Shown: piece after piece, positions 7,899 to 29,875 of the stretch
Layout of the letters: each line of letters starts with the position of its first letter
Position numbering within the stretch: position 1 is the stretch's first letter
Source of the DNA: Clostridia bacterium
GTDB lineage: Bacteria; Bacillota; Clostridia; TANB77; CAG-465
Reading direction: 5' to 3'
Assembly (NCBI GenBank): GCA_028692955.1
Contig: JAQUWH010000001.1
Location: forward strand, 65,496 to 129,495
DNA: 64,000 bases
Notes under the pieces: model-generated
Seen by the model: the letters and a program-made list of their open reading frames with translations, nothing else
Told to the model about the DNA's origin: nothing
The model's database searches: none
Position numbers and translations under genes: made by a program

Positions 7899-7904
7899 AA
7901 ATGA

Positions 7905-8084: not shown

Positions 8085-8119
8085 AGACATAAGACAACCG
8101 GAAAATGTATTGCTAATAC

Positions 8120-8148: not shown

Positions 8149-8320
8149 TACTTTTTGAGATATTTGTGTAAAAAATGTGAAAATATATCATTCTGTATTA
8201 TTTTAAAATGCAACTTTTTTTATGTCGAATAGGGTCTACTTTCAGCTAACTATGTCGAAACGTTCTAAAAATATTGACACCTTTTATTGAAAATGCTAAA
8301 ATTGTGTTAGGTGAAAGGAA

Positions 8321-10135: not shown

Positions 10136-10137
10136 AA

Positions 10138-10470
10138 ATGAAACAATTAACAAAAAATCAAAAAAACAAGATAGTGATATTCTTATTTATCATTTTTGTA
10201 GTAGGCAACCATATATTTGCCGCTACTGATCCAACACTGGTAAATAAACTAGGAACTGTTTTTAAAAGAATATTGTCTTATTTGAAAACACTGGCCACTC
10301 CAGCAGCTGGGGTAGCAATAGCAAGCGGAATTATGTTTAGGAAGTTTAGTTTTGGTGATGAAGAAAAAATGATAAAAGGAAAGAAAATAATTATTAATGC
10401 TATTATCTGTTATGCAATGATACTCTCTATCGATCTCATTACTAAATTTATTGAGGCGGTTGTTAAATAA
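10138..10470 (+). CDS. Small secreted or membrane protein, possibly a conjugative pilin-like (VirB2/TrbC-like) component
   Basis: Signal-peptide-like N-terminus, central hydrophobic block ATPAAGVAIASGIMF, second TM near the C-terminus. Sits immediately after the T4CP. Confidence 0.35.
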   Translation: MKQLTKNQKNKIVIFLFIIFVVGNHIFAATDPTLVNKLGTVFKRILSYLKTLATPAAGVAIASGIMFRKFSFGDEEKMIKGKKIIINAIICYAMILSIDLITKFIEAVVK

Positions 10471-11312: not shown

Positions 11313-11315
11313 AAA

Positions 11316-11639
11316 ATGGAAAAGATTAAGAATTATTATAACTTTAAAAGAGAAAATAAGTGGCTTGGAATAATAGACTATAAAACACTACTGTTGCTTT
11401 TATTCTATATAGCAGTTATCGTGTTATTATTAAAAAATATAAATATTAAATTGGAATATCTTGTTTATATATTTATCACCTTAACGTTGCCAGTTTTTAT
11501 TATTGTATTTATAAATATTGGAAATGAAAGTGTGTATGATGTAATTATTGTTTTGCTAAAATATTATATAAAAAGAAAAATCTATGTAAAGGGGAGATAC
11601 ATAAGGAGTCTGAAGGACGAAATTTATAAAAAAATGTAA
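11316..11639 (+). CDS. Small two-TM protein, VirB3/PrgI/TcpE-like
   Basis: 107 aa with two adjacent hydrophobic helices and a basic tail. Confidence 0.35.
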   Translation: MEKIKNYYNFKRENKWLGIIDYKTLLLLLFYIAVIVLLLKNINIKLEYLVYIFITLTLPVFIIVFINIGNESVYDVIIVLLKYYIKRKIYVKGRYIRSLKDEIYKKM

Positions 11640-11747
11640 GAAAAAAAATAAAGCTTGTGTCTATTTTTGTCGAAAAACCGAATATATTTTGAAATTTTAA
11701 AGTTTTATGTTAAAATAGATGCTATAAATGAATGAGGGGGATAGCAC

Positions 11748-12194
11748 ATGAAAAGGGGAAGAATTATCTTAATGATAGTAAGTGTTTTATTACTTGCAGG
11801 ATTTATTATTGAAATTGTATTCTTCTTAAGATGGTCAAGTTATAGGTCATCAGGAGACAAAAAAGTATCGAATGAATCATACCTTGAACGCTATTATAAA
11901 ATTGTTCAAATAACGGCCAAACAAGATAATATTTTACATGAATATACTATTATAACAACGAAAGAAGGAAAAGTAATAGATACAAGAATAGTAAAAACGG
12001 GTTATACCACAGATAAATTAGTAGAAGAGTGTAACACGTTAAGAAAATCTGAAGATGTGATATATAACTTGATAGAGGGAGAGAATGATATAAAGTATAA
12101 TTCCAGTGGCGATAATGGGAAACAAGTAGACGATGTGGTAAAAGATTATCAAAATAATGAAGCTTTCAAAGTAGTTACTATTAGGAAAATTTAA
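11748..12194 (+). CDS. N-terminally anchored small protein, paralog A
   Basis: One TM then a soluble domain. Clearly paralogous to the next ORF (YKIVQITAKQDNILHEYTIITTKEGKVIDTRIVKTGYT versus YHVFQITSKENGILSEYFAITTKEGAARDT...RIIESGYS). Confidence 0.5.
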   Translation: MKRGRIILMIVSVLLLAGFIIEIVFFLRWSSYRSSGDKKVSNESYLERYYKIVQITAKQDNILHEYTIITTKEGKVIDTRIVKTGYTTDKLVEECNTLRKSEDVIYNLIEGENDIKYNSSGDNGKQVDDVVKDYQNNEAFKVVTIRKI

Positions 12195-12216
12195 TAAGGA
12201 AGGAGTATATAATGTT

Positions 12217-12666
12217 ATGAAAAAAGACAAGAACCTACTGATTTTTCTCACTATTTTAATCTTTTTGATTATATTATTTAGTGCTTTATTCTATTATCAG
12301 TGGAAGAATGTTCAATATAGCGAAGTAACAGTTCAAGATTTTAGTAAACAATATGGATATCATGTATTTCAGATTACAAGTAAAGAAAATGGAATTTTAA
12401 GTGAATATTTTGCCATTACTACTAAAGAAGGTGCAGCTAGGGATACTATAGTATTGGATACAAGAATCATAGAAAGTGGTTATTCAGGAGAAAAATCGAG
12501 TGAAAGATATGAACTACTGAATAACTTTCATGGCATAGTATATAACGTGACGAAAACAGAAGGAACAATCTCATATAATACTTCAGTTAATAATGGGAAA
12601 TCAGTATATGAATTAATAAATGCAAGGAAAAATTATTGTAAAGATGTAGTGGTAAAAGAAAATTAG
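12217..12666 (+). CDS. N-terminally anchored small protein, paralog B
   Basis: Tandem duplicate of the previous gene. A terminator hairpin (gattcctagac...gtctaggaatc tttt) follows. Confidence 0.5.
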   Translation: MKKDKNLLIFLTILIFLIILFSALFYYQWKNVQYSEVTVQDFSKQYGYHVFQITSKENGILSEYFAITTKEGAARDTIVLDTRIIESGYSGEKSSERYELLNNFHGIVYNVTKTEGTISYNTSVNNGKSVYELINARKNYCKDVVVKEN

Positions 12667-12751
12667 ACAAAAGAGATTCCTAGACAAAAGTCTAGGAATC
12701 TTTTGGTATGGAGATAATAACTTATTTAATTGAAGAGGTTTTCTTCAATTT

Positions 12752-13195
12752 TTATGCGTCTCTAAGTAAAACACTGACAGCACCTGCTCCGGGTGAACTA
12801 ACATAAACGGTGTATGTACCAGCAACACTGTTGTTAATACGTTGGACTACCTGCCGACCGGGTGCGACCTGAATTACGGTGTCTGGAAAACAGTTCTTGC
12901 CATTTGGAGAAATAATCTGTACGTATGCCACAGCTGTTGAGGACTCAGCATTGTAGATAACTGCTTCTCCATATAAACTCCAACCAGGAGAATTGATAGT
13001 GAAGCTAGCAGCTCCGTTGAAATAAACACTTCCCATTCCACTGATGGCTCTTGTATTTGGAACCATAAGTTCTTGTGTTGCTAGAGCATCAGAAGCGACA
13101 GGAAGTTCCGTAGCATAGGAAGGAACAGCAAGTGTAAAACACATTGCAATTACCAACAGGAAAGATAGAATCTTTTTGCGGGAAAATTTTTTCAT
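12752..13195 (-). CDS. Secreted Gly/Ala/Val/Ser/Pro-rich beta-type protein with signal peptide
   Basis: Signal peptide MKKFSRKKILSFLLVIAMCFTLAVPSYA. The CDS has much higher GC than its flanks. Promoter and RBS look host-like. Confidence 0.55.
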   Translation of the reverse strand: MKKFSRKKILSFLLVIAMCFTLAVPSYATELPVASDALATQELMVPNTRAISGMGSVYFNGAASFTINSPGWSLYGEAVIYNAESSTAVAYVQIISPNGKNCFPDTVIQVAPGRQVVQRINNSVAGTYTVYVSSPGAGAVSVLLRDA

Positions 13196-15548: not shown

Positions 15549-16550
15549 TTATATTTCAAAATCCGATTTGTCTGGAAATATATACGCTAAAGAATTATTT
15601 ATTTCATTTTGAGCTTTTACAAAATCTTTCAAAGGATAAGAATCGTTAATGCATATCATGTTATATTTTTGGTTTTTAATCGTTTTTATTAATCTTGTAT
15701 TATCATCTAAAACAGTAAAGTATTTACCATTCATTATGGTAGGGATAAATTTGCCATTAAATAAATTAAAATATCTAAAAATGCCTTGCCCTAAATCAGT
15801 ATTACTCCTAAATTTATTTTCACATGCTATATCAAGTATTTTATATTCTTGTTCCCATACCTTAAAGAAAGTACTTTTTAAACAGGGCTGTGATAAATGT
15901 AAGGATAATATATCATTAAATTGATACATACTAAAGTATCTTATTGTTTTTAAATTATGAAAACCATATTTTATATTCAAAATTTTAAAAAAATTATTTT
16001 TTAGGAAAGTTGTTTTATTAAAATGTTTTGCTAATACATTGTTATAATTTTTTCTCAAAATACTATGTCTTTTACTACAGTTTTTCTTAATATACTCCAC
16101 GTAAAAATCTTTAGGCAAATCTTTATAAAAGAAATCAGTTTCTTTTAAATGATTTAGTATAAAAATATCGTCATTTAATAAGATAAATTGTTCTGATAAA
16201 TCTTTTATTCTATGTAGGTTAGTTTCAATTACATTGGAATTAAAAGTTGGTAAATATTTTTTTGGTATAAATTCATCATGACGAATAATTCTGATTTTTT
16301 GATTATTAGTATTAAGCCATGATGGAATATGACCCCAGGTTACAAAGAAAATATGATGTATCCAACTTGCGTATTTTTCTATGCCTCTAAATAAATATTG
16401 TAGATTATTAAAATCTCTAAATCTATTAATAGATGAATCTCCCTTAACATTTGAATAGTTGTTTTTTTCTTTTATCCACTCTGGGTCATTGCCATCTACC
16501 CATAATATTACTGCATCTATTTTATTTGAATATTTCATATTGTTTACCAT
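15549..16550 (-). CDS. Stealth-family (CR1-CR4) hexose-1-phosphoryltransferase, paralog 2
   Basis: Stealth motif ILWVDGNDPEW, plus FFVTWGHIP and LLNDDIF. Confidence 0.65.
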   Translation of the reverse strand: MVNNMKYSNKIDAVILWVDGNDPEWIKEKNNYSNVKGDSSINRFRDFNNLQYLFRGIEKYASWIHHIFFVTWGHIPSWLNTNNQKIRIIRHDEFIPKKYLPTFNSNVIETNLHRIKDLSEQFILLNDDIFILNHLKETDFFYKDLPKDFYVEYIKKNCSKRHSILRKNYNNVLAKHFNKTTFLKNNFFKILNIKYGFHNLKTIRYFSMYQFNDILSLHLSQPCLKSTFFKVWEQEYKILDIACENKFRSNTDLGQGIFRYFNLFNGKFIPTIMNGKYFTVLDDNTRLIKTIKNQKYNMICINDSYPLKDFVKAQNEINNSLAYIFPDKSDFEI

Positions 16551-17566
16551 CAGGTTTCAAATTCCGACTTATCTGGCAATATTTCCGCAAAGACTTGATT
16601 TATTTCATTTTTTACTTTGTGGAAATCGATATTAACATAGGCATCATTAATACAAATCATCTTATATTTGTGTGTCTTTAAAGCACTTATTAAATCGTCA
16701 TTGTTGTTATTATACACAAAATATTTAGTTTCATCTTTTTTTGGTATAAATTTTCCGCTAACCATTTGCCAATACCTACATAAATAATGGCCTAAATCGG
16801 TTGATTGTCTAAATTTATTATGACACGCCAAATCAAGATTTTCTCCTTCTTTTTCCCAAACTTCTAAAAATGTTTTTTTCAAATAAGGTTGTGGCGCATG
16901 AAAATTCCAAAAACCACAAAATTTCTTTTTAATAGAAAGATATTTTAAAGTCCTAAAATTAAATTTGCCATATTTGTAATTTATCATTTTAAAAAAATTT
17001 TTCTTAATTAATTCCTTTTTGTTAAAATATTTATTGATAATAGCTAATATATTTGCTTTCATAAAAAAATGAATATCATTATAAAAAGAAGCTACTTGTA
17101 TATTTTCAACATAAACATCTGTTGGTAAATTATTTATAAAAAAATCAGAGGGATTCGTATCTTTTAATAAAAACAAATCATCATTAAGAAGAACAAAATG
17201 CTCCGATAAATCTTTTATTCTATGTAAATTTAATTCGATGACATTTGAATTAAAAGTGGGCAAATATTCATTTGGTATAAAATCTTCATGGCGCACAATT
17301 TTAATCTTTTTATTCTTTGTATTAAGCCATGGTGGAATGTGTCCCCAAGTTACAAAGAATATATTGTTTACCCAATTAGCATATTTTTCGATGCTCCTAA
17401 ATAGATAATGTAAATTTTCACAATCTCTGAAACGATTTTCTTGCTGATCTCCGCCTCTATGAGAATGCATGTTTTTTTCATTTATCCATTCTGGATCATT
17501 ACCATCTACCCATAGTATTACAAAGTCTATTTTATCAATGCTTTTACTAGATTTTTCCATGGTCAT
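16550..17566 (-). CDS. Stealth-family (CR1-CR4) hexose-1-phosphoryltransferase, paralog 1
   Basis: Same motifs as the neighbour. Highly similar along the whole length. Its stop and the next gene's start share one nucleotide. Confidence 0.65.
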   Translation of the reverse strand: MTMEKSSKSIDKIDFVILWVDGNDPEWINEKNMHSHRGGDQQENRFRDCENLHYLFRSIEKYANWVNNIFFVTWGHIPPWLNTKNKKIKIVRHEDFIPNEYLPTFNSNVIELNLHRIKDLSEHFVLLNDDLFLLKDTNPSDFFINNLPTDVYVENIQVASFYNDIHFFMKANILAIINKYFNKKELIKKNFFKMINYKYGKFNFRTLKYLSIKKKFCGFWNFHAPQPYLKKTFLEVWEKEGENLDLACHNKFRQSTDLGHYLCRYWQMVSGKFIPKKDETKYFVYNNNNDDLISALKTHKYKMICINDAYVNIDFHKVKNEINQVFAEILPDKSEFET

Positions 17567-19610: not shown

Positions 19611-22073
19611 ATGGATTTAAACGATGAGAATTTTTTATCGGCACAAAAAATTGTACCTGTAAAAATAGAAGAAGAAATGAAGAAGTCGTACATTGATTAT
19701 GCGATGAGCGTAATTGTTGCTCGTGCTCTTCCAGACGTAAGAGATGGTATGAAACCAGTACATAGAAGAATTCTTTATGTTATGAATGAACTATCTTTAT
19801 GGCCTGAAAAAGGATATAGAAAATCTGCAAGTATTGTTGGTGATGTTATGGGTAATTATCATCCACATGGAGATGCAGCAATATACGATGCTTTAGTGCG
19901 TTTATCACAAGATTTCTCAATGAGATATCCACTTGTAAATGGACATGGAAATTTTGGCTCAATAGACAATGATCCACCGGCTGCAATGAGATATACAGAA
20001 GCTAAATTGCAAAAAATATCACTTGAAATGTTGACTGATTTAGATAAAAATACGGTTGATTTTACGCCAAACTATGATGATAGATTAACAGAACCTAGTG
20101 TTTTACCAGCTAAATTGCCTAATTTGCTAATTAATGGCTCATATGGTATTGCTGTTGGTATGGCGTGTAATATTCCACCACATAACTTAACAGAAGTTAT
20201 CAATGGAACAATTGCCCAGCTTGACAATCCAGAAATAACAAATGAAGAATTAATGGCCTATATTAAAGGGCCTGACTTTCCAACAGGAGGTTTAATTCTT
20301 GGAAAAGAAGGGATTAGAAATGCCTATACAACTGGTAGAGGAAAAGTTTGCGTAAGAGCAAGAGCTGAAATTGAAGAAGATAATAAAGGAAGATTCCATA
20401 TTATCGTTACAGAAATACCGTATCAAGTAAATAAAGCAGCGCTTGTTGAAAACATTGCCAAACTCGTACAATTAAAGGTGATAGAGGGTATATCAGATTT
20501 AAGAGATGAATCAGATAGAGAAGGATTAAGAATATCAATTGATTTAAAAAGAGATGCAAATCCTAACGTTGTCCTTAATTTACTATATAAACATACACAA
20601 CTGCAAAACACTCAGTCTATGTTAATGCTTGCTATTGTCGATGGACAACCTAGAATCTTAAAATTAAATGAAATTCTTGCTGAATATATTAAACATAGAG
20701 AAAGCGTTGTGGTAAGAAGAACTAAATTTGATCTTGCTAAAGCGGAAGCTAGACTTCACATTTTAGAGGGGTTAAGAATTGCTCTTGATCATATTGACGA
20801 AATTATTAGAATTATACGTTCTGCATATGATGACGCGCAACAAAGATTGATGGAAACGTTTGGACTTTCTGAAATTCAATCAAATGCCATTCTTGAAATG
20901 AGATTGAGAACGTTACAAGGTCTACAAAGAGAAAAAATAGAAAATGAGTATAATGAACTTGTTAAATTGATCGCACATTTAAAAGAAATCCTTGGATCAG
21001 AATTATTAGTAAAAGAGATTATTAGAGAAGAATTACTCGAAATAAAAGAAAAATATGGTGATGAAAGAAAAACTGAAATCACTCATGGTGAAGGTGATAT
21101 CGACATTGAAAGTTTAATCAAAGAGGAAACTAATGTTGTTACACTTACACATTTTGGCTATGTTAAAAGAATAGCTGCTGATGTATATAGAAGCCAAAAA
21201 CGTGGCGGTAAAGGATTGACAGCTATGAACACCAGAGAAGAGGACTTTGTTGAGCAACTATTTGTAACTTCTACGCATGATTATATTATGTTCTTTACTA
21301 ATACAGGTAGGGCATTTAGATTAAAGGCGTATGAATTGCCAGAAGCAAGTAGAACAGCAAAAGGTACTGCTATTGTTAATCTATTACAACTTGCGCAAGG
21401 TGAAAAAATTGCTGCTGTAATACCAGTAAAAGACTATACTAGTGATTTGTTTGTTCTAATGGCTACTAGAAATGGTCTTATGAAGAAAACAAAATTAGAA
21501 GAATATTCTAATATTAGAAAAACTGGAATACAAGGAATTACATTAAAAGAAGATGACGAGCTAATTGATGTAAGGCTTACTGATGGTTCAAATGACGTAG
21601 TCATGGTTACACAAAGAGGATTATCAATCAGATTTCCGGAGGCGGAAGTAAGGTCAGTAGGAAGAACATCTATGGGCGTAAAAGGAATCACACTTGGAAA
21701 AGGCGATATTGTTGTCGGTATGGAACCAATTAGTGATAACAAAGATTATATACTTGCTATTACTGAAAATGGTTTTGGAAAGAGAACAGAAGTAGAAGAG
21801 TATAGATGTCAGGGAAGAGCTGGTAAAGGTGTATTAACATACAAAACAACAGCAAAAACAGGACATATTATAGGAATCAAAATTGTTAACGATACAGACG
21901 ATATTATGATTATTACTGATACTGGTGTTGTTATACGTATTAATGTTAAAGATATTAGTGTACTTGGAAGAAATACACAAGGTGTGACATTAATGAGAAC
22001 TTCAGATGGTGGTAAGGTAATCAACATTGCTAAAATACCAAAAGAAGATGAAGTTGAATTTGAAGAGGAATAA
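19611..22073 (+). CDS. gyrA: DNA gyrase subunit A (type IIA topoisomerase A subunit with GyrA-box)
   Basis: Active-site region [14 protein letters not shown]-like motif. GyrA box QKRGGKG. Six-bladed C-terminal domain. Confidence 0.85.
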
Positions 22074-22148: not shown

Positions 22149-22476
22149 ATAGAGTATTTCAGATAGTCGCTTGCTTTGGTAAGAGGAAAGTCCGGACACC
22201 GTAGGGCAATAGTGCTAGATAACGTCTAGTGAGAGTGATCTTAAGGAAAGTGCAACAGAAAAAAACCGCCACTTGTGGTAAGGGTGAAAACGCGAGGTAA
22301 GAGCTCACGAACAGATATGGAGACATGTATGTGGTGTAAACCCCACTTGGTGCAACATCGCAGTAGAAAGGTTAAGACTGCCCGTCGTCTTTCGTGGTTG
22401 ATGGCTTGAAATATATAGCAATATATATTCTAGATAAATGACTATTTAATACAGAATCCGGCTTACGAAGTGCTCT
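22149..22476 (+). ncRNA. rnpB: RNase P RNA, type A
   Basis: Universally conserved GAGGAAAGUCCGG, GGUAAGGGUGAAA...GGUAAGAGC and ACAGAAUCCGGCUUA motifs. P1 pairing agagtatttc (22149-22158) with gaagtgctct (22467-22476). Confidence 0.75.
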
Positions 22477-22477
22477 A

Positions 22478-22507
22478 AAGCTCACCTTTTGGTGGGCTTT
22501 TTTAATT
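22478..22507 (+). terminator. Terminator after rnpB
   Basis: agctcacc tttt ggtgggct followed by ttttttaatt. Confidence 0.5.
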
Positions 22508-22720
22508 ATTGGTGTTCCGTAACAAAAAATATAGTTAAAATATAGTTATCAATGTAAAAAAAATGTCAAATTGTTGACTTTTATTTTACTTTGTATTATA
22601 CTTAAAATATATGATAAATGAACGGTTAAGAACATTTTTGTATTTAAATATAAATTAAAATAATAATAATTTTTTTTGATATGAATAGAAATCTAGTATA
22701 GGTTTTTATTGGAGGAAAAT

Positions 22721-24448
22721 ATGGATAATGATGAAAATAAGGGGATGCTAGAGGAAAATACTGAAAAATTGAGTATTGAAGAAAAGGTAATTCCTACAGA
22801 AGAAATAGTAAAAGAAGAGACTATCGAAGCAAAAGTAGTAAACAAAGAAGAGGAACCAAAAAAGCACAGTAAACAAAGAAAAGTGATATTCATTGTATGT
22901 GTAGTTTTAGTAAGCATTATTCTTTTTTTAGGTGGTATTGTGTGCGTTAATAAAATGAATCCAAATGCGTATAAAAACTTACATGTATTAGGAATGAATA
23001 TGAGCGGGAAAAATCTTGAAAAAATTGCACAAGAATTAAATGAAAAGTTTTCGGGATATAAGCCAGAAGAAAAATATAATGTTTATCAAGATACGGAAAG
23101 TATCTATACTATCATGCCTACTGAAATTGAATTTTCTATTAATATACCAGCAACTGCAAAGAAAATTTTAGAGTTTGGTAGAACTGGTAATTTATTAAAA
23201 GATAATATTGCTATCATGAAAGCATTTTTTTCAAAAGTGGAGATAATACCAGAATACAATTATAGCCAGGAACTATTAGATGAAAAATTAAATAATATTG
23301 ATTTGACACTAAAAGACAGATTTGTGGATGATAAATTTAGTGTAGACGAAAATACTAAAAAATTAATTATCACAAGAGGGAAAAGTGGAAATTCTATCAA
23401 TTATGAAGAAGAAGGAAAAAATCTAGTTAATAAATTTGCTAATTCTTATGTAAGTGGAAATAATGATACTAATATTACTTTAGCTATTGTACAAAAAAAA
23501 CCAATTGCTATTAACGTTGAAGAAGTATATGGTAAAGTAAAAAGAGATGCAAAAGATGCTTATATTGATGAAACGGTTAGCCCAATTAAACTTGTTTCTG
23601 AAGTGGTGGGATTTGACTTTAATGTGGAAGAATTAAAAGCAGTCATCGAAAAAGAAGAAAATAAGGCAGAAGGAAAAGTAATTGAATTTGACTTAAAAGT
23701 AATAGAACCTAAAGTCAAATTAGCAGACATTACCTATAAATTGTATAAAGATAAATTAGCAGGACTGACTACATATTTTGATGCTGGCCAAGCGGCAAGG
23801 GCTAACAACTTAAAAATAGCATTAAACTATTTGAATGGGAAAATTATTATGCCTGGTGAGACTTTCTCATATAATGCTGCAATTGGTGATACAACTGTTG
23901 CAAAAGGTTATCAAGAAGCGGCTACTTTTAAAGGTGGGGGCGTTGTTAATGAACTAGGTGGCGGTATATGTCAAACGACTTCAACTCTTTATGACGTTGC
24001 ACTAATGGCTAATATGCAAATTGTTCAAAGACATCAACATGGATTACCTGTTGGTTATGTAAAACCAAGTCTAGATGCTACTGTATATTCTCCTAATTTA
24101 GATTTTAAATTTAAGAATACAAGGAAATACCCAGTGAAAATTGTGACTTCATATAGTAGCGGAGGCAGTCTGAATATAAGTATATTTGGTACAAAAGAAG
24201 AAGTGGAATATGATATTACGTTGAGTAGTTCTTATATCAAAACAATACCATTTCAAACAAAATATACTTACGACGAAAATATGTATGAAGGGGAACAAGT
24301 GATTGTTTCAAAAGGGGTAAATGGTTATGTTTCAGAAGGATATATCACAAAAATGTTAAACGGCAAAGTTGTTGAATCAAGAATGCTATCTCGTGACACC
24401 TATAATGCACAATCTCAGATAGTTAAAGTGGGAACGAAGAAACAGTAA
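22721..24448 (+). CDS. VanW-domain protein with C-terminal G5 domain, N-terminal acidic region and TM anchor
   Basis: VanW core (GETFSYNAAIGDTT...GGGICQTTSTLY). G5-like C-terminus. RBS GGAGG 5 nt before the ATG at 22721. Confidence 0.7.
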   Translation: MDNDENKGMLEENTEKLSIEEKVIPTEEIVKEETIEAKVVNKEEEPKKHSKQRKVIFIVCVVLVSIILFLGGIVCVNKMNPNAYKNLHVLGMNMSGKNLEKIAQELNEKFSGYKPEEKYNVYQDTESIYTIMPTEIEFSINIPATAKKILEFGRTGNLLKDNIAIMKAFFSKVEIIPEYNYSQELLDEKLNNIDLTLKDRFVDDKFSVDENTKKLIITRGKSGNSINYEEEGKNLVNKFANSYVSGNNDTNITLAIVQKKPIAINVEEVYGKVKRDAKDAYIDETVSPIKLVSEVVGFDFNVEELKAVIEKEENKAEGKVIEFDLKVIEPKVKLADITYKLYKDKLAGLTTYFDAGQAARANNLKIALNYLNGKIIMPGETFSYNAAIGDTTVAKGYQEAATFKGGGVVNELGGGICQTTSTLYDVALMANMQIVQRHQHGLPVGYVKPSLDATVYSPNLDFKFKNTRKYPVKIVTSYSSGGSLNISIFGTKEEVEYDITLSSSYIKTIPFQTKYTYDENMYEGEQVIVSKGVNGYVSEGYITKMLNGKVVESRMLSRDTYNAQSQIVKVGTKKQ

Positions 24449-24565
24449 ACATAAAAAATGCAAAAATAAACATAAAAAATGGTAAAAAGTATTGTAATAA
24501 TATAAAAAATATAGTATAATAGTATTAGATTTAGGTTTTTGACCTTAAGAAAGAGGTAAATATTT

Positions 24566-25087
24566 ATGGAGCCTTTAATACAAATGAATAAATTTGAAAT
24601 TGTAGATATGCCTGGTATGACAACGATAGCTTTTTTAGTTGAAGAAAACGAAATAGAATATAAGCAAGGGAAATCATTATTATCTCTTCAAAAAATTGAC
24701 AGTATCGATAGTCAAGAAGAAGGGAAAATGAAGAAAACATTTAATGTGATAAAAACAGATGATGAACCACAATTAATTGTTTTACTTACTTTAACGAATA
24801 CAAAGGCTATTTTAAGTACAGGAGAATTGACTGCTGAAGGTTTTAAGACAACAGAATCGAATATCCCATTAAATTATGGTACTTTATTTAATCAAGTAGG
24901 AGTTGAATATAAAGAAGTTGAGTATACACCAAATATGAAAAGGCATTTTTCAATTATAGATACACAAACAGGTGAAGAAGTAAAACCGGTTTTATATACA
25001 GATGAAGTGACTGGTAAAGTAAAAGGTAGATGTAAAATTTTACCAAATAGACCTTATATCGTACTTGAACTAGGGTTTGAAGATTAA
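24566..25087 (+). CDS. Hypothetical soluble protein
   Basis: ORF with RBS (agaaagaggtaaata ATG). No known motif. Confidence 0.45.
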   Translation: MEPLIQMNKFEIVDMPGMTTIAFLVEENEIEYKQGKSLLSLQKIDSIDSQEEGKMKKTFNVIKTDDEPQLIVLLTLTNTKAILSTGELTAEGFKTTESNIPLNYGTLFNQVGVEYKEVEYTPNMKRHFSIIDTQTGEEVKPVLYTDEVTGKVKGRCKILPNRPYIVLELGFED

Positions 25088-25146
25088 TATAATTTGAAAC
25101 GATAATAAATGTAGTAATAAATGTAGTAAATGGAGGAATTCTTATT

Positions 25147-25320
25147 ATGAATAGAAATGTAGGTATAAAATGTAATGCTATTGTAGCATCTGAACTAGAT
25201 AATAATATAAAAATACTTTCAACAGCAAAAAGTGTTTTTATTAGAAATGCAAGAGATATAGCACCAGCTGAAATTGTTCCTGAAAGTAGAGAACTAGAAG
25301 GCTGGAATGAACAAATATAA
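25147..25320 (+). CDS. Small ORF (57 aa), not in the supplied track because it is under 60 aa
   Basis: GGAGG RBS 8 nt upstream. Reads MNRNVGIKCNAIVASELDNNIKILSTAKSVFIRNARDIAPAEIVPESRELEGWNEQI. Confidence 0.3.
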   Translation: MNRNVGIKCNAIVASELDNNIKILSTAKSVFIRNARDIAPAEIVPESRELEGWNEQI

Positions 25321-25434
25321 AAATTAGGTGATACATATGAAGAAAGTAGAAGTTGAATAGTATAAAAAGCAAAAGTCTATATTATATAATATAGACTATT
25401 TGTCGTTATAGGCAAACGAAAGAGGTAAAGAGAT

Positions 25435-27420
25435 ATGGGAAAGTTTAAGCTTAATAAATTAAAAAGGGAAATAATACCTTTTTTGATTGCATTTTTAATA
25501 GTAGATATCGTTATAATAGGGGCATTTGTCATTGCATCACATGAAGTGGCAGATATTACAAAACCTTTTGAAAAAATGATGTCAGTATTTAACAAATTTT
25601 TGCCTGCTATTACTAGTTTTAGGTTCTTTACGGCTATATTTGTTGATTTTGCTGGATTTATGACAGCTACTTTCTGGACGCTCATTGTTTTTGTAGCGTT
25701 ATTTATTTACTGGAAGATAAAAGTTTCACCTGATTCTGATTATGATGGGATTGAGAATGGCTCGAGTGATTGGAGTAAAGGCGGAGAAGAATTTGACAAA
25801 TTACCAGATGGAAGTGAAATATTAAATAGAAAGTCTGGATTTATATTAAGTAGAAAACATTATTTAGGAACTGATTTAAGAAAAGTGAAAATAAACAAGA
25901 ACATATTAGTTGTCGGTGGATCTGGTGCTGGTAAGTCCGCTTGTTATATTAAACCAAATATTCTTCAAATGTTAGGTTCTTATGTTATTACAGACCCTAA
26001 AGGTGAATTATATAGAGAAACATCAGGTTTTCTAAAAGCAAATGGTTATGAAGTAAGAGCATTTAATTTGGTTAACCCAGATTATAGCGATAGATTTAAT
26101 CCACTTGCACACATTATTGACCATCAAAGTGTTGATATTATAGCCCACACTATTGTAAATGGTGCAACAAAGGGACAAGGAAGTAATGATCCATTCTGGG
26201 ATGATACAGCTAAAATGTTATTAAAGGCTGCTATATACTATGTTATATCAGTTCTTCCTCCTGAAGAACAAAATATATCAAGTTGTCTAAATATTATACG
26301 TCAAGGTGGTGCAGATGCAGATGTATTTAAGAAGTTATTTATTGATGAGTTAAAACCAGAGCACCCTGGTAGAAAAGAATATGAAAACTTTAGTACAGCT
26401 GCAGATAAGACATTACAAAGTATCGTCATCTCAACAATTTCTAAAATCACATCTTTTGATACACCATCTATGCAAAGAATTACAACCTCTAACAATATTA
26501 ATTTTGATGATTTAGGAAATAAAAAAGTTGCCCTATTTGTTATAACGTCAGCATCTGATAGTACTTATGATTTTATATCTACTATTTTCTTTAGTTTAAT
26601 GCTGCAAAAACTATATGCGCAAGCAGATAGAAATGGTGGTACACTAAAACACCAAGTCTACTTCTTGTTAGATGAGTTTGCTAATATTGGGCAAATACCA
26701 GACTTTAACAAAAAACTTAGCACAACTAGAAGTCTAGGAATTAGTATTTCTATCGTGGTACAGAGTTTGGACCAATTAGAAGCTTTATATAAAGATAATT
26801 ATGAAAATATATTAGGTAACTGTGATACTCACTTGTTCCTAGGAAGTCAGGCAATTAAAACTTGTGAATATTTCTCAAAGAGTTTAGGGCAAAAGACAAT
26901 TAAAGTAAAGAGCAGATCCGTGAATAAAGACAAAGACGAAAGAGAAAAACAGGGTGTTTCTATTAGTGAGCAAAGACTTGGAAGAGAACTGATGACGATT
27001 GATGAATTGAAACGTTTACCATCCGATGATGAAATTTTGCTAGTAAGAGGATTAAAGCCAATCAAAGCGCAAAAAGCATGGTACTTTAAATTCCATCCCT
27101 TAAAAGATGTGGCAAAACAATATGAAATTAGGGATATTACGCAAATGCCAAAAACGGATTCTGTTGAAATCAGTATCATGGACGTAAGAGCTCATCTTGA
27201 AAAGAGAAAAAAAGCTGCTGAAGAATATATGAAAAAGAAAAATGCAGAAATACAAAAAGAAGATACCCCTTTTGAGATTGTAGAGTCAGAAATAAAACCT
27301 GAAATAAGACCAGAAATCAAAGAAGAACCTAAAAAAGAAGAAAAAGAATCTACTTTTGATTTACAAGAAGAATTAGAGAAGAAATTTGATGAACTATTTG
27401 GTTCAACGAGTAACGAATAA
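25435..27420 (+). CDS. VirD4/TraG-type type IV coupling protein (T4CP), intact, with highly charged C-terminal tail
   Basis: Two N-terminal TM helices. Walker A VVGGSGAGKS. Motifs ITDPKGELY, FNPLAHI, and Walker B YFLLDEFANIG. E/K-rich tail. Confidence 0.75.
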   Translation: MGKFKLNKLKREIIPFLIAFLIVDIVIIGAFVIASHEVADITKPFEKMMSVFNKFLPAITSFRFFTAIFVDFAGFMTATFWTLIVFVALFIYWKIKVSPDSDYDGIENGSSDWSKGGEEFDKLPDGSEILNRKSGFILSRKHYLGTDLRKVKINKNILVVGGSGAGKSACYIKPNILQMLGSYVITDPKGELYRETSGFLKANGYEVRAFNLVNPDYSDRFNPLAHIIDHQSVDIIAHTIVNGATKGQGSNDPFWDDTAKMLLKAAIYYVISVLPPEEQNISSCLNIIRQGGADADVFKKLFIDELKPEHPGRKEYENFSTAADKTLQSIVISTISKITSFDTPSMQRITTSNNINFDDLGNKKVALFVITSASDSTYDFISTIFFSLMLQKLYAQADRNGGTLKHQVYFLLDEFANIGQIPDFNKKLSTTRSLGISISIVVQSLDQLEALYKDNYENILGNCDTHLFLGSQAIKTCEYFSKSLGQKTIKVKSRSVNKDKDEREKQGVSISEQRLGRELMTIDELKRLPSDDEILLVRGLKPIKAQKAWYFKFHPLKDVAKQYEIRDITQMPKTDSVEISIMDVRAHLEKRKKAAEEYMKKKNAEIQKEDTPFEIVESEIKPEIRPEIKEEPKKEEKESTFDLQEELEKKFDELFGSTSNE

Positions 27421-27521
27421 TACATATAAATAGAGTTAAAGTTATCAAGACAACTTTAACTCTATTTGTTGTTTTTGTTTGGTGAATGTAGTATAATTAT
27501 AATAGATACAGGAGGAGGATT

Positions 27522-28208
27522 ATGGAAAAGAAAAAGCCGATGATGATTTTTATCGTAGCAGTTTTATCAATTGCACTTATTGCTTTGATTTCTATCTATT
27601 TTTTAAATAATACTGGTAAGATTAACCAAGGCAATTTTAGAATAAATGACGCTGTTTTAGAATCGTATATTACAATAGAAGAAAAACAAGAAGATACCGT
27701 TACCGAATTATCACATATTGTGATGAACCTATCCCAAGAAAATAAACTATCTTTCTTAATTACTAAAAATGTTGCTATTTCTGACATCTATATTGACAAA
27801 TTATCTGTGAATAAACCAGAAAAATTAGGTAAATTATACATAAATCAGAATAATAAAGAAGAAAGTATAGATTGCTTTGATAAGGAAGGAAAATATAATA
27901 TTACTGCACAAGAAAAGGATAACCAATATTTGGTAGAACTTAAAATAGTCAATCAAAATTGTATGCAAGATGTCAATGTACCAAATGAAACAAAGGTGTT
28001 AAAATATGATGGTACTTTACTAGAATTACTAAATAGAAAGATCAGTGATTTTACTTTTCATTTATCATTTAATTTAAATATAGTAGAAGAAAATGGTAAA
28101 CTTAATATATGTAAAGTAGCACTAGATATGCCAAGTGAAGAGTTAATCACAAATGGTGTTAGTATTATTAGATTAGATACTGCAAAACTTGTATTTAGTG
28201 TAAAATAG
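27522..28208 (+). CDS. Membrane-anchored hypothetical protein
   Basis: N-terminal TM anchor then a soluble domain with two Cys pairs. ggaggagg RBS. Confidence 0.45.
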   Translation: MEKKKPMMIFIVAVLSIALIALISIYFLNNTGKINQGNFRINDAVLESYITIEEKQEDTVTELSHIVMNLSQENKLSFLITKNVAISDIYIDKLSVNKPEKLGKLYINQNNKEESIDCFDKEGKYNITAQEKDNQYLVELKIVNQNCMQDVNVPNETKVLKYDGTLLELLNRKISDFTFHLSFNLNIVEENGKLNICKVALDMPSEELITNGVSIIRLDTAKLVFSVK

Positions 28209-28253: not shown

Positions 28254-28338
28254 ATCACCAAGCAATAGGGTACCGTGAACCTTGTCAGGTCCGGAAGGAA
28301 GCAGCAATAAGCGTAATACTCTATGTGTTTGGTGTATT
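28254..28338 (+). ncRNA. ffs: Small SRP RNA (4.5S-type)
   Basis: Invariant domain IV motif GUCAGGUCCGGAAGGAAGCAGC. Terminal helix caccaagca/tgtttggtg. Promoter TTGATT (28219-28224), 17 nt, TATAAT (28242-28247). Conserved position directly upstream of dnaX. Confidence 0.6.
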
Positions 28339-28354
28339 TTTATGGGGTGATGAA

Positions 28355-29875
28355 ATGTCGTATGTAGCATTATATAGAAAATATAGACCAGCCACTTTTG
28401 ACACTATACTTGGTCAAGAAAATGTGACAAAAATATTAAAAAACCAGGTGAAATCTGGAAAAATATCACATGCCTATTTGTTTAGTGGAAGCCGTGGTAC
28501 TGGTAAAACCAGCGCCTCAAAGGTGTTCGCTAGAGCTATTAATTGTTTAAATCCAAAAGAGGGAGAACCTTGCAATGAATGTGCCATATGTAAAAGCATT
28601 TTAGAGGGAAATACAACAGATGTGATAGAGATGGATGCAGCATCTAATAACAGTGTTGAGAATATACGTCAAATAAGGCAAGAAGTTGTATATGCGACAA
28701 TTGATGTAAAATATAGGGTGTATATTATAGATGAGGCACATATGTTGACGACGAGTGCTTTTAACGCATTATTAAAGACATTGGAAGAACCACCTGAAAA
28801 TGTTGTCTTTATTTTGGCAACGACAGAACAACATAAAATACCTGTTACGATACTTTCAAGATGCTTAAGATTTGAATTTAATAGGATTTCAGAAGAGGTT
28901 ATCTATGAGAGATTAACACATATTTTAGATGCTGAAGGCGTAAAGGCAGAAGAGGAAGCTTTAAAGTATATTGCTAAAATTGCAGATGGTGGAATGAGAG
29001 ATGCTATTAGCGTTTTAGATAGGTGTATGTCTGAATCACAAGAGATGTTAAAATATGAAGATGTGTTAAGAATTATAGGGGCTATCGATGATAGATTCAT
29101 AGCAAGTGTTGCAGATAATATTCTGGATAGAAATGCGATGAAAGTAATTGAAATGATTGATGAAATCATAATACGTGGAAAAGATTTAAGACAATTTAAT
29201 TATCAAATTACAGAGAAATTTTTAGATAAATTAATTGGTGAGAAAGAAAATACAGCAAGGTATATCACTATAATAGATAGATTATCTAAGCTTGATAATG
29301 ATTTAAGATTGACTTCAAAACCTGTGATTGTGTTAAAATCTGCTATGATTGAATTGTGTAATGTAACTGGCAATTCAGATACTAATAGTCAACAAGGAGC
29401 TCAAGATACTACTAATATCGAACCACTAATAACCAAAATAGCTTATCTTGAAAGTGAAGTAGAAAAACTAAAAAATAGGAAATCAATCAGTCAATCTAAT
29501 GTAAATAGTAGTAATATTAACATTGTAAAAGAAGAAAAAAAAGAGCAGGATGTTGACGATGCTACTGTGTTTCAAGATATAGAAAACTTAAAGAAAGAAG
29601 TAATTGGACAAGGAAAGTTAAAATTATATTCTTCGTTGGCGGGTGCCAAAGCATATGAAAATGCAAATTTTTTAATACTCATTACCAACAATTCTTTTGC
29701 TTATTCCATTTTAATCTTACAAGAAAATATAGATGATTTGACAAGAATATATGAAGAAAAATATGGTGTTCATAAAGACGTGATTATTAGGTTGCAAGAG
29801 GAACAGAAACAAAGCGATACTAAAATAGAGAAAGTATTAAAACAAAAAGATGTAAGTTATACTTCATTTGATTGA
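28355..29875 (+). CDS. dnaX: DNA polymerase III subunits gamma/tau
   Basis: MSYVALYRKYRPATF, Walker A GSRGTGKTS, zinc module CNECAIC, and clamp-loader motifs. The upstream in-frame ATG at 28325 would overlap the SRP RNA, so I take the start at 28355. Confidence 0.85.
   Translation: MSYVALYRKYRPATFDTILGQENVTKILKNQVKSGKISHAYLFSGSRGTGKTSASKVFARAINCLNPKEGEPCNECAICKSILEGNTTDVIEMDAASNNSVENIRQIRQEVVYATIDVKYRVYIIDEAHMLTTSAFNALLKTLEEPPENVVFILATTEQHKIPVTILSRCLRFEFNRISEEVIYERLTHILDAEGVKAEEEALKYIAKIADGGMRDAISVLDRCMSESQEMLKYEDVLRIIGAIDDRFIASVADNILDRNAMKVIEMIDEIIIRGKDLRQFNYQITEKFLDKLIGEKENTARYITIIDRLSKLDNDLRLTSKPVIVLKSAMIELCNVTGNSDTNSQQGAQDTTNIEPLITKIAYLESEVEKLKNRKSISQSNVNSSNINIVKEEKKEQDVDDATVFQDIENLKKEVIGQGKLKLYSSLAGAKAYENANFLILITNNSFAYSILILQENIDDLTRIYEEKYGVHKDVIIRLQEEQKQSDTKIEKVLKQKDVSYTSFD

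Follow-up and report, generated by a model that had tools for sequence, protein, structure and literature searches.

The locus described here lies in a 64-kb window (the whole stretch of DNA that was analysed) and reads RNase P RNA, vanW, p173, a small ORF, a T4CP gene, p228, SRP RNA, dnaX, ybaB and recR. Four ORFs, on the plus strand like the sequence elements and cluster 2 genes given below, occupy positions 24566-25087, 25147-25320, 25435-27420 and 27522-28208 (173, 57, 661 and 228 aa) between the VanW gene (22709-24448) and the SRP RNA (28254-28339), exactly where a first-pass annotation had placed them. That annotation treated them as a four-gene cassette. The real unit is an operon of three genes, which encode p173, an intact VirD4-type ATPase of the CD1115 family and, between them, a small protein with an acidic tail; p228 is present downstream, but only after an intrinsic-terminator-like hairpin of 18 pairs and a T run (27426-27469, inverted repeat I5), which is predicted to end the p173-sORF-T4CP transcription unit.

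The T4CP (25435-27420) was assigned from Pfam, NCBIfam, motifs and hydropathy. It matches T4SS-DNA_transf (E 7.7e-78), TraG-D_C (3.4e-36) and TrwB_AAD_bind (1.5e-25) in Pfam, and scores 435.6 bits against the NCBIfam equivalog 'VirD4-like conjugal transfer protein, CD1115 family', for which the cut-off is 250 bits. The motifs reported earlier are all found in the translation: Walker A GGSGAGKS (residues 161-168, encoded at 25915-25938), VITDPKGE, RFNPL, Walker B YFLLDEF and an E/K-rich tail. The two claimed transmembrane segments correspond to N-terminal hydrophobic stretches at about residues 9-41 and 67-98 in a hydropathy scan. Toward the C-terminus, a hypervariable linker precedes the peptide FDLQEELEKKFDELFG (27355-27402), which is invariant in an alignment of the p173-linked T4CPs. 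Its consensus, FD(L/I)QxxLExKFDELFG, stands at the C-terminus of every T4CP linked to p173, even in the distant L079 and L099. The peptide was not found in the p173-less paralogues L037-L073 and is missing from ICE and plasmid relatives, the plasmid proteins aligning only as far as query residue 547-598.

The first gene of the triad, p173 (24566-25087), encodes a cytoplasmic protein whose AF2 model (pLDDT 84.6) is all-beta with 14 strands. It has zero matches in Pfam, NCBIfam and PADLOC, its model has no Foldseek match at E<0.001 in the PDB or BFVD, and a search of 1.84 billion proteins yields only 105 representative clusters of homologues. The first-pass annotation had raised the prospect that T4CP orthologues would always sit in conjugation loci, with flanking genes that are not conserved. 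The orthologue neighbourhoods show the opposite for p173, which is kept beside the T4CP in 35 of 36 genome loci and also in the distant L078, L079, L098 and L099, whereas p228 follows in only 22 of the 36. We regard p173 as a dedicated partner of this T4CP lineage. The small ORF (25147-25320), recognised by its ATG, GGAGG Shine-Dalgarno and positional conservation, had been described as a micro-ORF; it is present, but as a genuine, positionally conserved gene. In every locus examined, the gap between p173 and T4CP holds an ORF that starts with ATG and is preceded by a GGAGG Shine-Dalgarno; L078, L079, L098 and L099 have the small ORF too. Among relatives the product ranges from 40 to 123 aa, with a beta-rich N-terminal region of ~35 aa and a variable acidic/basic linker, and in most of them it terminates in an acidic-hydrophobic tail such as GEDDMIV. 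It evolves fast (dN/dS about 0.71 against L001). Neither p173 nor the small ORF product has a hydrophobic segment in the hydropathy scan.

The downstream p228 (27522-28208) encodes a membrane-anchored, extracytoplasmic beta-sandwich protein according to its AF2 model (pLDDT 80.7, helix at residues 4-31) and hydropathy (a single hydrophobic segment at 3-32); a Foldseek search of the PDB returned no match. It is also fast-evolving (dN/dS 0.177). Its identity in the 22 loci is 32-68%, and it was not found downstream in L076, L079 and L099, where the triad lies in other chromosomal contexts. It is possibly an accessory gene linked only in the gyrA-dnaX context. Its predicted promoter region (27485-27512, repeat family D9) holds an exact AATGTAGTA in a motif search and shares 79% identity over 28 nt with the sequence upstream of p173 (24508-24535). 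There, a consensus scan predicts a promoter-like site, TTGTAA-17-TATAAT (24492-24520), within which the motif search places a 1-mismatch AATGTAGTA copy (24508-24516). The window contains four exact matches to AATGTAGTA, three of them inside the cassette. Judged by these shared upstream sequences, p228 and p173 may be co-regulated.

Two further non-coding elements had been pointed out within the operon. The tandem 13-bp direct repeat, two exact copies of AATAAATGTAGTA at 25104-25129, lies directly 5' of the small ORF Shine-Dalgarno. It is part of a conserved ATGTAGT array, and comprises two (A/G)ATGTAGT(A/T) elements with a period of ~12 nt; two to five copies occupy the same place in ~24 of 39 related entries, an enrichment of roughly 30-fold over the rest of the related loci. 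The perfect 24-bp palindrome was likewise confirmed (25374-25397; AGTCTATATTAT followed by ATAATATAGACT, 12+12), 37 nt 5' of the T4CP ATG. As RNA it would form a hairpin (fold z = -2.5), after which comes AUUUGUCGUUAU. A simulated window is expected to contain 0.017 perfect palindromes with 12-nt arms; the real one has four. The three others sit just 3' of stop codons, and the T4CP palindrome is therefore non-random yet belongs to a type that is common in this genome. The simplest reading is a terminator-like hairpin, or attenuator, that separates the small ORF from the T4CP gene. Only about 3 of 37 relatives keep it, with variable loop length, and its arms are conserved only in L001 (loop 3) and L025 (loop 6). 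A role as a general operator was rejected on account of this sparse conservation and its likeness to the window's terminator hairpins.

The wider context speaks for a stable chromosomal seat. The complete gyrA...recR order is repeated in 14 genome loci and in L074, at T4CP identities of 62-89%, and the GC content of the cassette does not differ from its flanks. Against L001, dN/dS is 0.040 for the T4CP and 0.081 for p173, compared with 0.042 for gyrA, 0.026 for recR and 0.140 for dnaX. With T4CP identity falling to about 41%, the triad appears in at least four housekeeping neighbourhoods: it adjoins a ComEA-like gene and the PCRF/RF-1 release-factor gene in L076, adjoins dnaJ in L079 and lies between rpmB and sbcDC in L099, and it is also seen in L078 and L098. 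No VirB4, relaxase or integrase was found within 10 kb of the triad in these other contexts. A group of gut Clostridia carries a coupling ATPase with two previously undescribed partner genes, chromosomally fixed, vertically inherited in the host lineage and constrained to a degree comparable with gyrA. In the source genome the cassette is no part of a mobile element, which bears out the early view of an intact T4CP outside any conjugation locus. Given its permanent seat and gyrA-like constraint, the module very likely serves the host cell itself rather than a plasmid.

In 16 of the 36 relatives the T4CP reading frame is restored only by a +1 shift at a rare CGG codon within Walker A. Their sequence reads GG(A/T) C GG(A/T), and the extra C before the Gly codon therefore produces CGG in the 0 frame. 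CGG is the rarest Arg codon in these genomes (16 uses in 172,780 codons), and purifying selection acts on both T4CP halves. A slow or rare codon and an extra base before a Gly codon are features of programmed +1 frameshifting elsewhere: yeast Ty3 shifts at the slow-to-decode GCG_AGU_U, and glass-sponge mitochondria shift at the rare CGG_(A)/UGG_(A), where the extra base precedes a GGA codon (PMC5009743). Unlike these cases, the shift seen here is putative, falls within the P-loop of a bacterial chromosomal gene and concerns the relatives only, the window T4CP being unshifted.

T4CPs of the same NCBIfam family occur on conjugative plasmids and ICEs of Firmicutes, for example on the Paenibacillus urinalis plasmid NZ_CP118103.1. 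They share 31-39% identity over ~residues 10-598 and the architecture of N-terminal membrane segments, Walker A/B and TraG-D_C region. The gene order on that plasmid is MobC, relaxase, ..., FtsK-like, T4CP, 107 aa, 270 aa, PrgI, VirB4 (CD1110 family) and NlpC/P60. The window T4CP has none of these neighbours and stands instead beside p173 and the small ORF; it also differs from its plasmid relatives in its private C-terminal peptide and vertical inheritance. One MAG has a second T4CP copy, 90% identical, within an integrative element that also encodes a serine recombinase (L077), and in ICE-like loci of related species paralogous T4CPs lie beside SpaA/thioester adhesins.

The first-pass annotation saw no T4SS partners around the cassette. 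This holds for ~13 kb on either side but not for the window as a whole. At 8321-11639, 13-16 kb 5' of the cassette, a conserved, syntenic cluster under purifying selection (cluster 2) follows a T4SS gene order, with a T4CP-like gene, then a VirB2-like pilin and then two membrane proteins. In the succession and sizes of its genes it agrees with the canonical plasmid module T4CP - 107 aa - 270 aa - PrgI - VirB4. The second, very divergent T4CP-like gene (T4CP#2, 8321-10135; Pfam TrwB_AAD_bind 2.6e-11, TraG-D_C 8.2e-9) is frame-broken in the source genome at A runs (A7 at 8769-8775 and 8778-8784, A6 at 8901-8906), the A6 run falling inside its Walker A, GSIGTGK|T. In relatives it is a single 606-aa ORF, conserved in L080-L084 (dN/dS 0.115 for the ATPase part), and the intact L081 orthologue scores 7.2e-16 in Pfam. 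The VirB2/TrbC-like pilin candidate (10123-10470, 115 aa) matches Pfam T4SS_pilin PF18895 above the gathering score (2.5e-7) and shows a signal-like and a C-terminal hydrophobic segment by hydropathy; its L081 orthologue matches TrbC too. A polytopic membrane protein of 280 aa by hydropathy (10470-11312) takes the VirB6/PrgH position in the gene order. It is 45-70% identical in L081, L083 and L084 (dN/dS 0.083), while neither an hhalign comparison with the plasmid counterpart nor VirB6 homology was significant. The last gene (11316-11639) encodes a membrane protein of 107 aa, a PrgI/VirB3-like candidate from weak profile matches (NCBIfam VirB4_plasma N-terminus, 0.0017; Pfam PrgI for the L081 orthologue, 0.02); VirB3 homology was not significant. 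Its homologue in L009 lies directly 5' of dnaD. No VirB4 follows this gene or occurs anywhere in the 64-kb window, in which all ORFs of at least 500 aa were accounted for. Triad and cluster 2 were observed together only in the window and in L009. In L076 and L099 the triad has no T4SS-like gene within 10 kb, and the linkage is therefore not general.

The closest precedent is the chromosomal T4SS of Patescibacteria, which is relaxase-less and origin-proximal and has PF18895 pilins; its T4CP genes lie mostly far from virB4 and may be exapted (PMC12102498). Both cases involve conjugation-derived T4SS genes of the monoderm (MPF-FATA) type, chromosomally fixed near replication genes, without relaxase and with PF18895 pilins. 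However, the Patescibacteria system is defined by VirB4, which the window lacks, and the source organism is annotated as Clostridia and has a T-box leader as well as proteins with SpoIID and VanW domains. The portion of PMC12102498 available to us does not mention a p173-type partner or a tail peptide.

As a whole, the data are best explained, if tentatively, by a triad that forms a receptor complex feeding a relaxase-less, T4SS-derived apparatus. The T4CP would form the usual membrane-anchored hexameric ATPase, and the invariant peptide on its floppy, variable linker would dock p173 and/or the small protein, as the co-occurrence of tail and p173 suggests. DotL, for instance, keeps its partners via a C-terminal extension. 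Small dedicated cytoplasmic partners of a T4CP are described for the Legionella coupling complex (DotL with DotM, DotN, DotY, DotZ and the chaperone module IcmSW; PMC7280309) and for the F plasmid, where TraM bridges DNA to TraD (PMC3159463). The Pfam domain in our T4CP even carries the name 'TraM recognition site of TraD and TraG'. Like DotL/IcmSW-type adaptors or TraD/TraM, the docked partners and the T4CP would make up a substrate receptor that recruits a protein or DNA for export, although p173 and the small ORF have no sequence or fold similarity to those adaptors and both systems, unlike the window, have a complete T4SS. The substrate would then be handed to a membrane apparatus belonging to no conjugative element, with cluster 2 as the obvious candidate. 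Levels of the ATPase would be held low relative to its partners, in the window by the terminator-like hairpin before the T4CP gene and in about half of the relatives by the obligatory +1 frameshift at the P-loop CGG codon. The frame-broken T4CP#2 and the lack of VirB4 in the window count against an apparatus built from cluster 2, as do the non-significant VirB6 and VirB3 homologies and the triad contexts that have no T4SS-like gene within 10 kb; we know of no functional T4SS that lacks VirB4, its signature ATPase. The earlier interpretation is partly supported: the sequence features it drew on were all confirmed, and the core of a different translocating module remains a viable reading.

Somewhat unlikely, in our estimation, is a stand-alone translocase in which the T4CP hexamer, p173 and the small protein act channel-free, either to pump DNA or a protein over the cell's single membrane or on chromosomal DNA, with FtsK-like TraB of Streptomyces and TdtA of Thermus as proposed functional analogues. 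The triad is self-contained in its housekeeping neighbourhoods, which are free of T4SS genes for 10 kb, VirB4 is not found in the window, and DNA-metabolism genes are frequent neighbours (gyrA, dnaX and recR in the window, sbcD and sbcC in L099, mutS and mutL in L076), which may reflect just an origin-proximal location. The T4CP nevertheless keeps full similarity to the conjugative CD1115 family, TraG-D_C region included, the same chromosomal region of the lineage retains conserved T4SS-like genes, and we know of no T4CP shown to move a substrate alone. T4CP exaptation is itself raised by the authors of PMC12102498.

Less probable still is a host-encoded coupling protein that acts for a canonical ICE or plasmid T4SS elsewhere, as a resident helper mobilising chromosomal or element DNA. 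The conjugative family assignment, the L077 copy and the ICE-like loci with paralogous T4CPs would fit. ICEs, however, move between genomes and are patchily distributed, while across species the triad keeps its synteny and a gyrA-like constraint; dependence of a core gene on so accessory a partner is hardly plausible. The triad also has no relaxase or oriT-like feature alongside, and p173 and the tail peptide are missing from ICE and plasmid T4CPs. The suggestion of a defence module, with a T4CP-derived ATPase and sensor partners interfering with incoming plasmid or phage DNA, found no support and is very improbable. The fast evolution of the small ORF and p228 and tight dosage control would suit it, but the single PADLOC match, to mad8 (E 4.1e-5, 21.3 bits), reflects generic ATPase similarity, and p173, the small ORF and p228 match no defence family in PADLOC. 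The module lacks a nuclease or any other effector domain, and defence systems are typically patchy and island-borne rather than syntenic core genes at dN/dS 0.04. Finally, an inert remnant of a decayed integrative element, brought to mind by the adjacent small-RNA gene (a typical integration site) and the frame-broken T4CP#2, has almost no chance of being right, being contradicted by cassette ORFs that are all intact with dN/dS of 0.04-0.18 (0.04 for the T4CP, as for gyrA), by a composition equal to the flanks, by synteny that persists across genomes at only 62-72% T4CP identity, and by constraint on both T4CP halves even in the frameshifted relatives.

The 661-aa protein encoded at 25435-27420 is, judged by its sequence, an intact type IV coupling protein (T4CP). 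It matches the Pfam families PF02534 (T4SS-DNA_transf; E 7.7e-78, 262.8 bits against a cut-off of 20.1), PF12696 (TraG-D_C; E 3.4e-36, 124.4 bits) and PF10412 (TrwB_AAD_bind; E 1.5e-25, 90.3 bits), and reaches 435.6 bits, against a cut-off of 250, with the NCBIfam equivalog NF045973, 'VirD4-like conjugal transfer protein, CD1115 family'. Hydropathy places two N-terminal hydrophobic segments at residues ~9-41 and 67-98, the translation carries a Walker A (GGSGAGKS) and a Walker B motif (YFLLDEF), and the nearest solved relative by sequence is Cag5/VirD4 of H. pylori (8dol; E 4.9e-15). On the same strand lie the genes of a 173-aa protein (p173; 24566-25087) and of a 57-aa small ORF (25147-25320), which together with the T4CP form what we call the triad, and, downstream, that of a 228-aa protein (p228; 27522-28208). 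Upstream of the triad are gyrA (19611-22073), the RNase P RNA (22151-22480) and a VanW/G5 protein gene (22709-24448); p228 is followed by the SRP RNA (28254-28339) and then by dnaX, ybaB and recR. By family, the protein is a CD1115-type coupling protein; by genomic context, it is a putative non-conjugation gene. As called mechanically, the dnaX ORF would begin at a GTG (28325) within the 3' part of the SRP RNA, and the ATG at ~28355-28361 (MSYVALYRKYRP...) is more likely to be the true start.

Homologues of this T4CP number in the thousands, and the best 120 clusters, 55-89% identical, are from uncultured gut Clostridia. A genome scan yielded 36 orthologous loci at 62-89% identity, and the complete gyrA...recR order was found in 14 loci and in the additional locus L074. 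Among the assemblies with the triad are the source MAG (locus tags PHP54_00520-00535), Clostridium sp. CAG:465, CAG:921 and CAG:1219, GCA_023460235.1 and GCA_045537895.1. The first-pass annotation had proposed a neighbourhood analysis of the genes flanking the T4CP; run with tblastn, it shows that p173 does travel with the T4CP, being directly upstream in 35 of the 36 loci, whereas p228 does so only in part (downstream in 22 of 36). Across the orthologous loci, identity is 82-94% for gyrA, 81-95% for recR, 52-75% for dnaX and 44-71% for vanW, and with 62-89% the T4CP ranks among these housekeeping genes; p173 spans 61-87% and p228 32-68%. Ratios of dN/dS (NG86) between the window and its nearest relative, L001, are 0.026 for recR, 0.040 for the T4CP, 0.042 for gyrA, 0.081 for p173, 0.140 for dnaX, 0.153 for vanW, 0.177 for p228 and ~0.71 for the small ORF; the values are rough because dS is near 1, and the ranking of the genes is still clear. 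Coupling proteins are regarded as components of mobile elements and taken to indicate conjugation, but the T4CP in the window behaves like a housekeeping gene. We are highly confident that it belongs to a three-gene module that is under selection and inherited vertically.

None of the three other cassette proteins matches an entry in Pfam, NCBIfam or PADLOC. The AlphaFold model of p173 (pLDDT 84.6) is all-beta with 14 strands, and that of p228 (pLDDT 80.7) consists of a single N-terminal helix and a beta-sandwich; for both models, Foldseek searches of PDB and BFVD gave nothing at E<0.001. A profile search of 1.84 billion representative proteins returned only 105 clusters for the p173 family, and no p173 homologue was found in plasmids by tblastn. 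The 57-aa micro-ORF, listed in the cassette on first inspection, proved to be real: in all 37 distinct loci, the gap of 180-440 nt that separates p173 from the T4CP is occupied by an ORF of 40-123 aa that starts with ATG and has a GGAGG Shine-Dalgarno, and at a GC content of 30% such recurrence excludes chance. Its sequence drifts fast and its layout is constant, with a beta-rich N-terminal region of ~35 aa (for example IKCNAIVASELDNNIKILSTAKSVFI in the window vs IKVSAVTCKFGGDRLEILDSKMLNI in L028), then a variable charged linker and, in most relatives, an acidic-hydrophobic tail (GEDDMIV, GENDLIV or EEDEPII).

In other chromosomal contexts p173 is detectable by profile only. The triad lies between a ComEA-like gene and the PCRF/RF-1 release-factor gene, near mutS and mutL, in L076; it adjoins dnaJ in L079, stands between rpmB and sbcD-sbcC in L099, and is also found on the short contigs L078, where the T4CP is ~41% identical to that of the window, and L098. 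All four distant p173 members whose contigs extend downstream (L078, L079, L098 and L099) keep the triad; the contig of a fifth, L097, ends too early to show the downstream genes. Related MAGs also hold 37 paralogous T4CP loci (L037-L073; 30-41% identity), and a whole-family HMM found no p173 relative beside any of them.

The same division runs through the C-terminus of the T4CP. All orthologous T4CPs have a hypervariable low-complexity linker followed by (F)DLQxELEKKFDE(L/I)FG and 2-7 further residues, and the distant triad T4CPs carry the peptide as FDIQKQLEEKFDELFG (L079) and FDIQKQLEAKFDELFG (L099). It is absent from the 37 paralogous, p173-less T4CPs, and the plasmid relatives, all annotated as CD1115 family and at most 39% identical, align only to residue ~547-598. 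From this co-distribution of the tail peptide and p173 we propose the tail as a docking site for p173 and/or the small protein, which would likely bind there as adaptor or substrate. A model for such an arrangement is DotL, which holds its adaptors on a C-terminal extension. The closest mechanistic analogues of the triad would be adaptor-holding T4CPs of this kind, DotL working with the small adaptors IcmSW, DotN, DotY and DotZ (PMC7280309) and TraD with TraM (PMC3159463).

The first-pass annotation had described the T4CP as having no T4SS partners around it, but this overlooked a T4SS-like cluster (cluster 2) at 8321-12666, between three tRNA genes (tRNA-Thr, tRNA-Glu and tRNA-Lys; 7823-8084) and dnaD-dnaI. 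Its first gene, T4CP#2, matches TrwB_AAD_bind (2.6e-11) and TraG-D_C (8.2e-9). It was considered as a VirB4 and rejected, as it matches T4CP models only; a sequence comparison with solved structures gave no match. The cluster further encodes a candidate VirB2-type pilin of 115 aa (PF18895; 31.1 bits vs a gathering cut-off of 26.6), a polytopic membrane protein of 280 aa that is VirB6-like by topology and gene order alone, and a 107-aa membrane protein with weak PrgI and VirB3-like matches (0.02 and 0.0017), after which come two membrane-anchored paralogues (148 aa, 11748-12194, and 149 aa, 12217-12666). These ~145-aa paralogues, each with one N-terminal membrane anchor, diverge fast, and L081 has four of them (10790-12755) where the window has two. 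In the metagenome relatives L080-L084 the position of the cluster is conserved and its ATPase is 55-76% identical, and dN/dS against L081 is 0.08-0.33, indicating purifying selection; in L009, a PrgI-like gene and the triad are on a single contig. T4CP#2 is a single ORF of 606 aa in relatives. In the window, its frame is interrupted by A7 runs (8769-8784) and, within Walker A, by an A6 run (8901-8906; GGA AAA A ACG), where relatives have A5; the interruption is seen in the window genome only, and recent pseudogenization, slippage or an error of homopolymer assembly may account for it. A direct repeat, TATGTCGAA, with its copies 31 nt apart, lies at 8222-8262 in the promoter region of T4CP#2.

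In order and sizes, cluster 2 (T4CP - 115 - 280 - 107 aa) mirrors the plasmid CD1115/CD1110 module (T4CP - 107 - 270 - PrgI - VirB4 - NlpC/P60). Homology of its membrane proteins to the plasmid 107-aa, 270-aa and PrgI proteins was not borne out by hhalign (probabilities <2%), so the agreement is limited to order, size and topology. Unlike the plasmid module, cluster 2 ends before VirB4. No VirB4, relaxase or recombinase is encoded anywhere in the 64-kb window, where all ORFs of at least 500 aa were identified (GyrA, VanW, T4CP, DnaX, MetRS and ValRS); the VirB4 that marks a complete T4SS, be it MPF-FATA or Patescibacteria-like, is thus absent from it.

The nearest described situation is that of the Patescibacteria. 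According to the portion of PMC12102498 drawn on here, these have a chromosomal, relaxase-less T4SS of the monoderm type, often near the origin and with PF18895 pilins; T4CP homologues lie near virB4 in 148 of 5,713 cases, and the authors raise the exaptation of T4CPs. The ~145-aa paralogue array of cluster 2 also recalls the variable arrays of pilins or surface proteins found beside Patescibacterial T4SS genes. However, the Patescibacterial system is anchored on VirB4, which the window lacks, and the same portion of PMC12102498 mentions no p173-type partner. The window module parallels both the unexplained scattered T4CP genes and the relaxase-less T4SS of that group. In the literature on orphan T4CPs, CD1115 proteins and T4CP frameshifting, nothing was found on the triad module.

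The reading that we tentatively prefer is that p173 and/or the small protein would bind the T4CP tail, acting as adaptor or substrate, and that the complex would serve a non-conjugative export together with T4SS-derived membrane proteins such as those of cluster 2; the ATPase itself would be kept scarce, by a hairpin in the window and by a frameshift in relatives. Its main rival, to which we give a minor share of the probability, is a translocase that works independently of any T4SS. The absence of VirB4 speaks for it, as does the occurrence of the triad in contexts without nearby T4SS-like genes; in the window, cluster 2 is found 13-16 kb upstream.

That the T4CP is instead a helper for a conventional ICE fits the data less well and is improbable. 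Nor does the window locus look like an integrative conjugative or mobilisable element itself: mobility genes, patchy distribution and deviant composition are all lacking there, its synteny is conserved and its GC content is that of its flanks, and no integrase/recombinase, relaxase or VirB4 gene occurs within 10 kb of the T4CP in the window, L074, L076 or L099. Unlike the window locus, L077 and L100 do show integrase/recombinase, relaxase or VirB4-type genes near the T4CP. The MAG GCA_045537895.1 holds two T4CP copies that are 90% identical, one in the chromosomal triad of L076 and one in L077 (contig JAZSQI010000042.1); the latter has the tail peptide, lacks p173 and is enclosed in an element that encodes a 554-aa serine recombinase; mobile elements are therefore able to pick the T4CP up. 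The L077 copy may be a domesticated gene captured by a mobile element, or the bin may mix strains. A 181-aa gene upstream of it was rejected as a p173 relative (hhalign probability 0.1%), and the element also carries two sigma-70 region-4 proteins, an Amidoligase_2 protein and a PHP protein. The p173-less paralogues adjoin SpaA/thioester surface adhesins, typical of Gram-positive conjugative elements, in what appears to be a conserved ICE-type layout, distinct from the triad. In six of them (L037, L040, L044, L060, L067 and L069; ~7900-9650), the T4CP is preceded by the same unknown gene pair, of ~200 and ~305-315 aa, and by large SpaA/thioester adhesins as well; several of the p173-less T4CP genes look truncated. 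Annotation pipelines that take the window-type T4CP for a sign of conjugative elements will predict too many ICEs in these genomes.

The defence module that the first-pass annotation had entertained fits less well again and is very improbable: PADLOC-DB 2.0 gives only mad8, at 21.3 bits, for the ATPase, and leaves the other three cassette proteins without a match. An inert remnant, set against the selection seen on the cassette, is hardly credible. The window T4CP is syntenic, constrained at the level of gyrA, and equipped with two private partners of unknown fold and a private candidate docking peptide; it offers a clear candidate, open to testing, for the exaptation of a coupling protein to a cellular role in gut Firmicutes.

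The window T4CP is unshifted. Among the 36 loci, however, are 16 (L020 and L022-L036, with Clostridium sp. CAG:465 and CAG:921 among them) in which the frame of the gene shifts by +1 exactly at Walker A, at a site that is the same in all 16 and corresponds to 25912-25920 in the window (an example is L023:9992-11969, from Clostridium sp. CAG:465). The relatives read ...GT(T/A) GG(A/T) C GG(A/T) TC(T/A) GG(T/A)... vs GTC GGT GGA TCT GGT in the window. The 0 frame continues as G-R-(I/F)-x-x-x-stop, and the +1 frame gives GSGAGKS and then ~500 conserved codons with synonymous variation. Purifying selection acts on both parts of the gene within the shifted group (omega 0.06-0.47 before the shift and 0.07-0.16 after it). 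The additional C places a CGG in the 0 frame, and no codon is rarer in the long ORFs of those loci (16 uses in 172,780 codons). In six of the 16 loci, a stop directly precedes the +1-frame (D/V)GSG, so that the downstream part cannot initiate independently with its P-loop; the other 10 have only a TTG 1-2 codons upstream, with no obvious Shine-Dalgarno before it. On a neighbour-joining tree, shifted genes are intermingled with unshifted ones, which implies that the extra C was lost, or gained, more than once. The frame change also explains the ~500-aa 'MDGSGAGKS...' entries in databases and the many entries in which the protein is divided into fragments of 160 and 500 aa.

Sites of the same type are found in glass-sponge mitochondria, where +1 shifts occur at a rare CGG_(A), with the extra base 5' of GGA, and have been interpreted like that of yeast Ty3 (PMC5009743). 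By these sequence features, the site in the relatives is a candidate programmed +1 ribosomal frameshift of the Ty3/sponge-mitochondrion type. For the unshifted window gene, its relevance would be that the T4CP appears functional and dosage-controlled across the clade. We know of no described case of such dosage control by +1 frameshifting at a P-loop CGG in a bacterial chromosomal gene, and the conserved site is a ready-made system for the study of +1 recoding in bacteria. A bolder proposal, which we hold to be doubtful as a whole, would make the triad an undescribed, T4SS-independent, three-protein membrane machine, domesticated from a conjugative T4CP and core in several Firmicutes lineages, which exports DNA or the acidic-tailed small protein unaided and has its dosage set in about half of the species by a Ty3-like or sponge-mitochondrion-like +1 frameshift at the 'hungry' CGG.

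With a promoter-like site upstream of p173 and an 18-pair hairpin with a T run after the T4CP (27426-27469), p228 has its own start region. Both repeats singled out on first inspection were recovered. The tandem 13-bp repeat is the local form of a conserved (A/G)ATGTAGT(A/T) array, present in ~24 of 39 entries as 2-5 copies at ~12-nt spacing directly 5' of the small ORF Shine-Dalgarno, with a density ~30-fold above the remainder of the same loci; it is lacking in the other chromosomal contexts of the triad. The window has four exact AATGTAGTA matches, three of them in the cassette, including one in the p228 promoter region, which is itself 79% identical to the p173 upstream region over 28 nt. 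Such similarity hints at a common regulation of the cassette genes.

The 24-bp palindrome ahead of the T4CP is indeed perfect, with an expectation of 0.017 per simulated window. Its arms recur only in L001 (loop of 3 nt) and L025 (loop of 6 nt). As a conserved operator it was rejected, being absent in ~30 of 37 relatives and of variable loop length, and as a repeated genomic element too, its half-site occurring once in the window. The variable loop fits a hairpin better than an operator of fixed spacing, the RNA fold has z = -2.5, and in our reading the palindrome would act as a partial terminator and reduce read-through into the T4CP. The window has three other perfect palindromes with arms of 12 nt or more (7661-7687, 12674-12701 and 47349-47376). 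Each follows closely on a stop codon, two of them in the gaps of convergent gene pairs, and AT-rich perfect hairpins seem to be the usual terminators of the source genome. Elsewhere in the window, tandem paralogous Stealth-family proteins (CR1/CR2/CR4) of 333 and 338 aa are encoded on the minus strand at 15549-17566, between dnaI and dnaJ.
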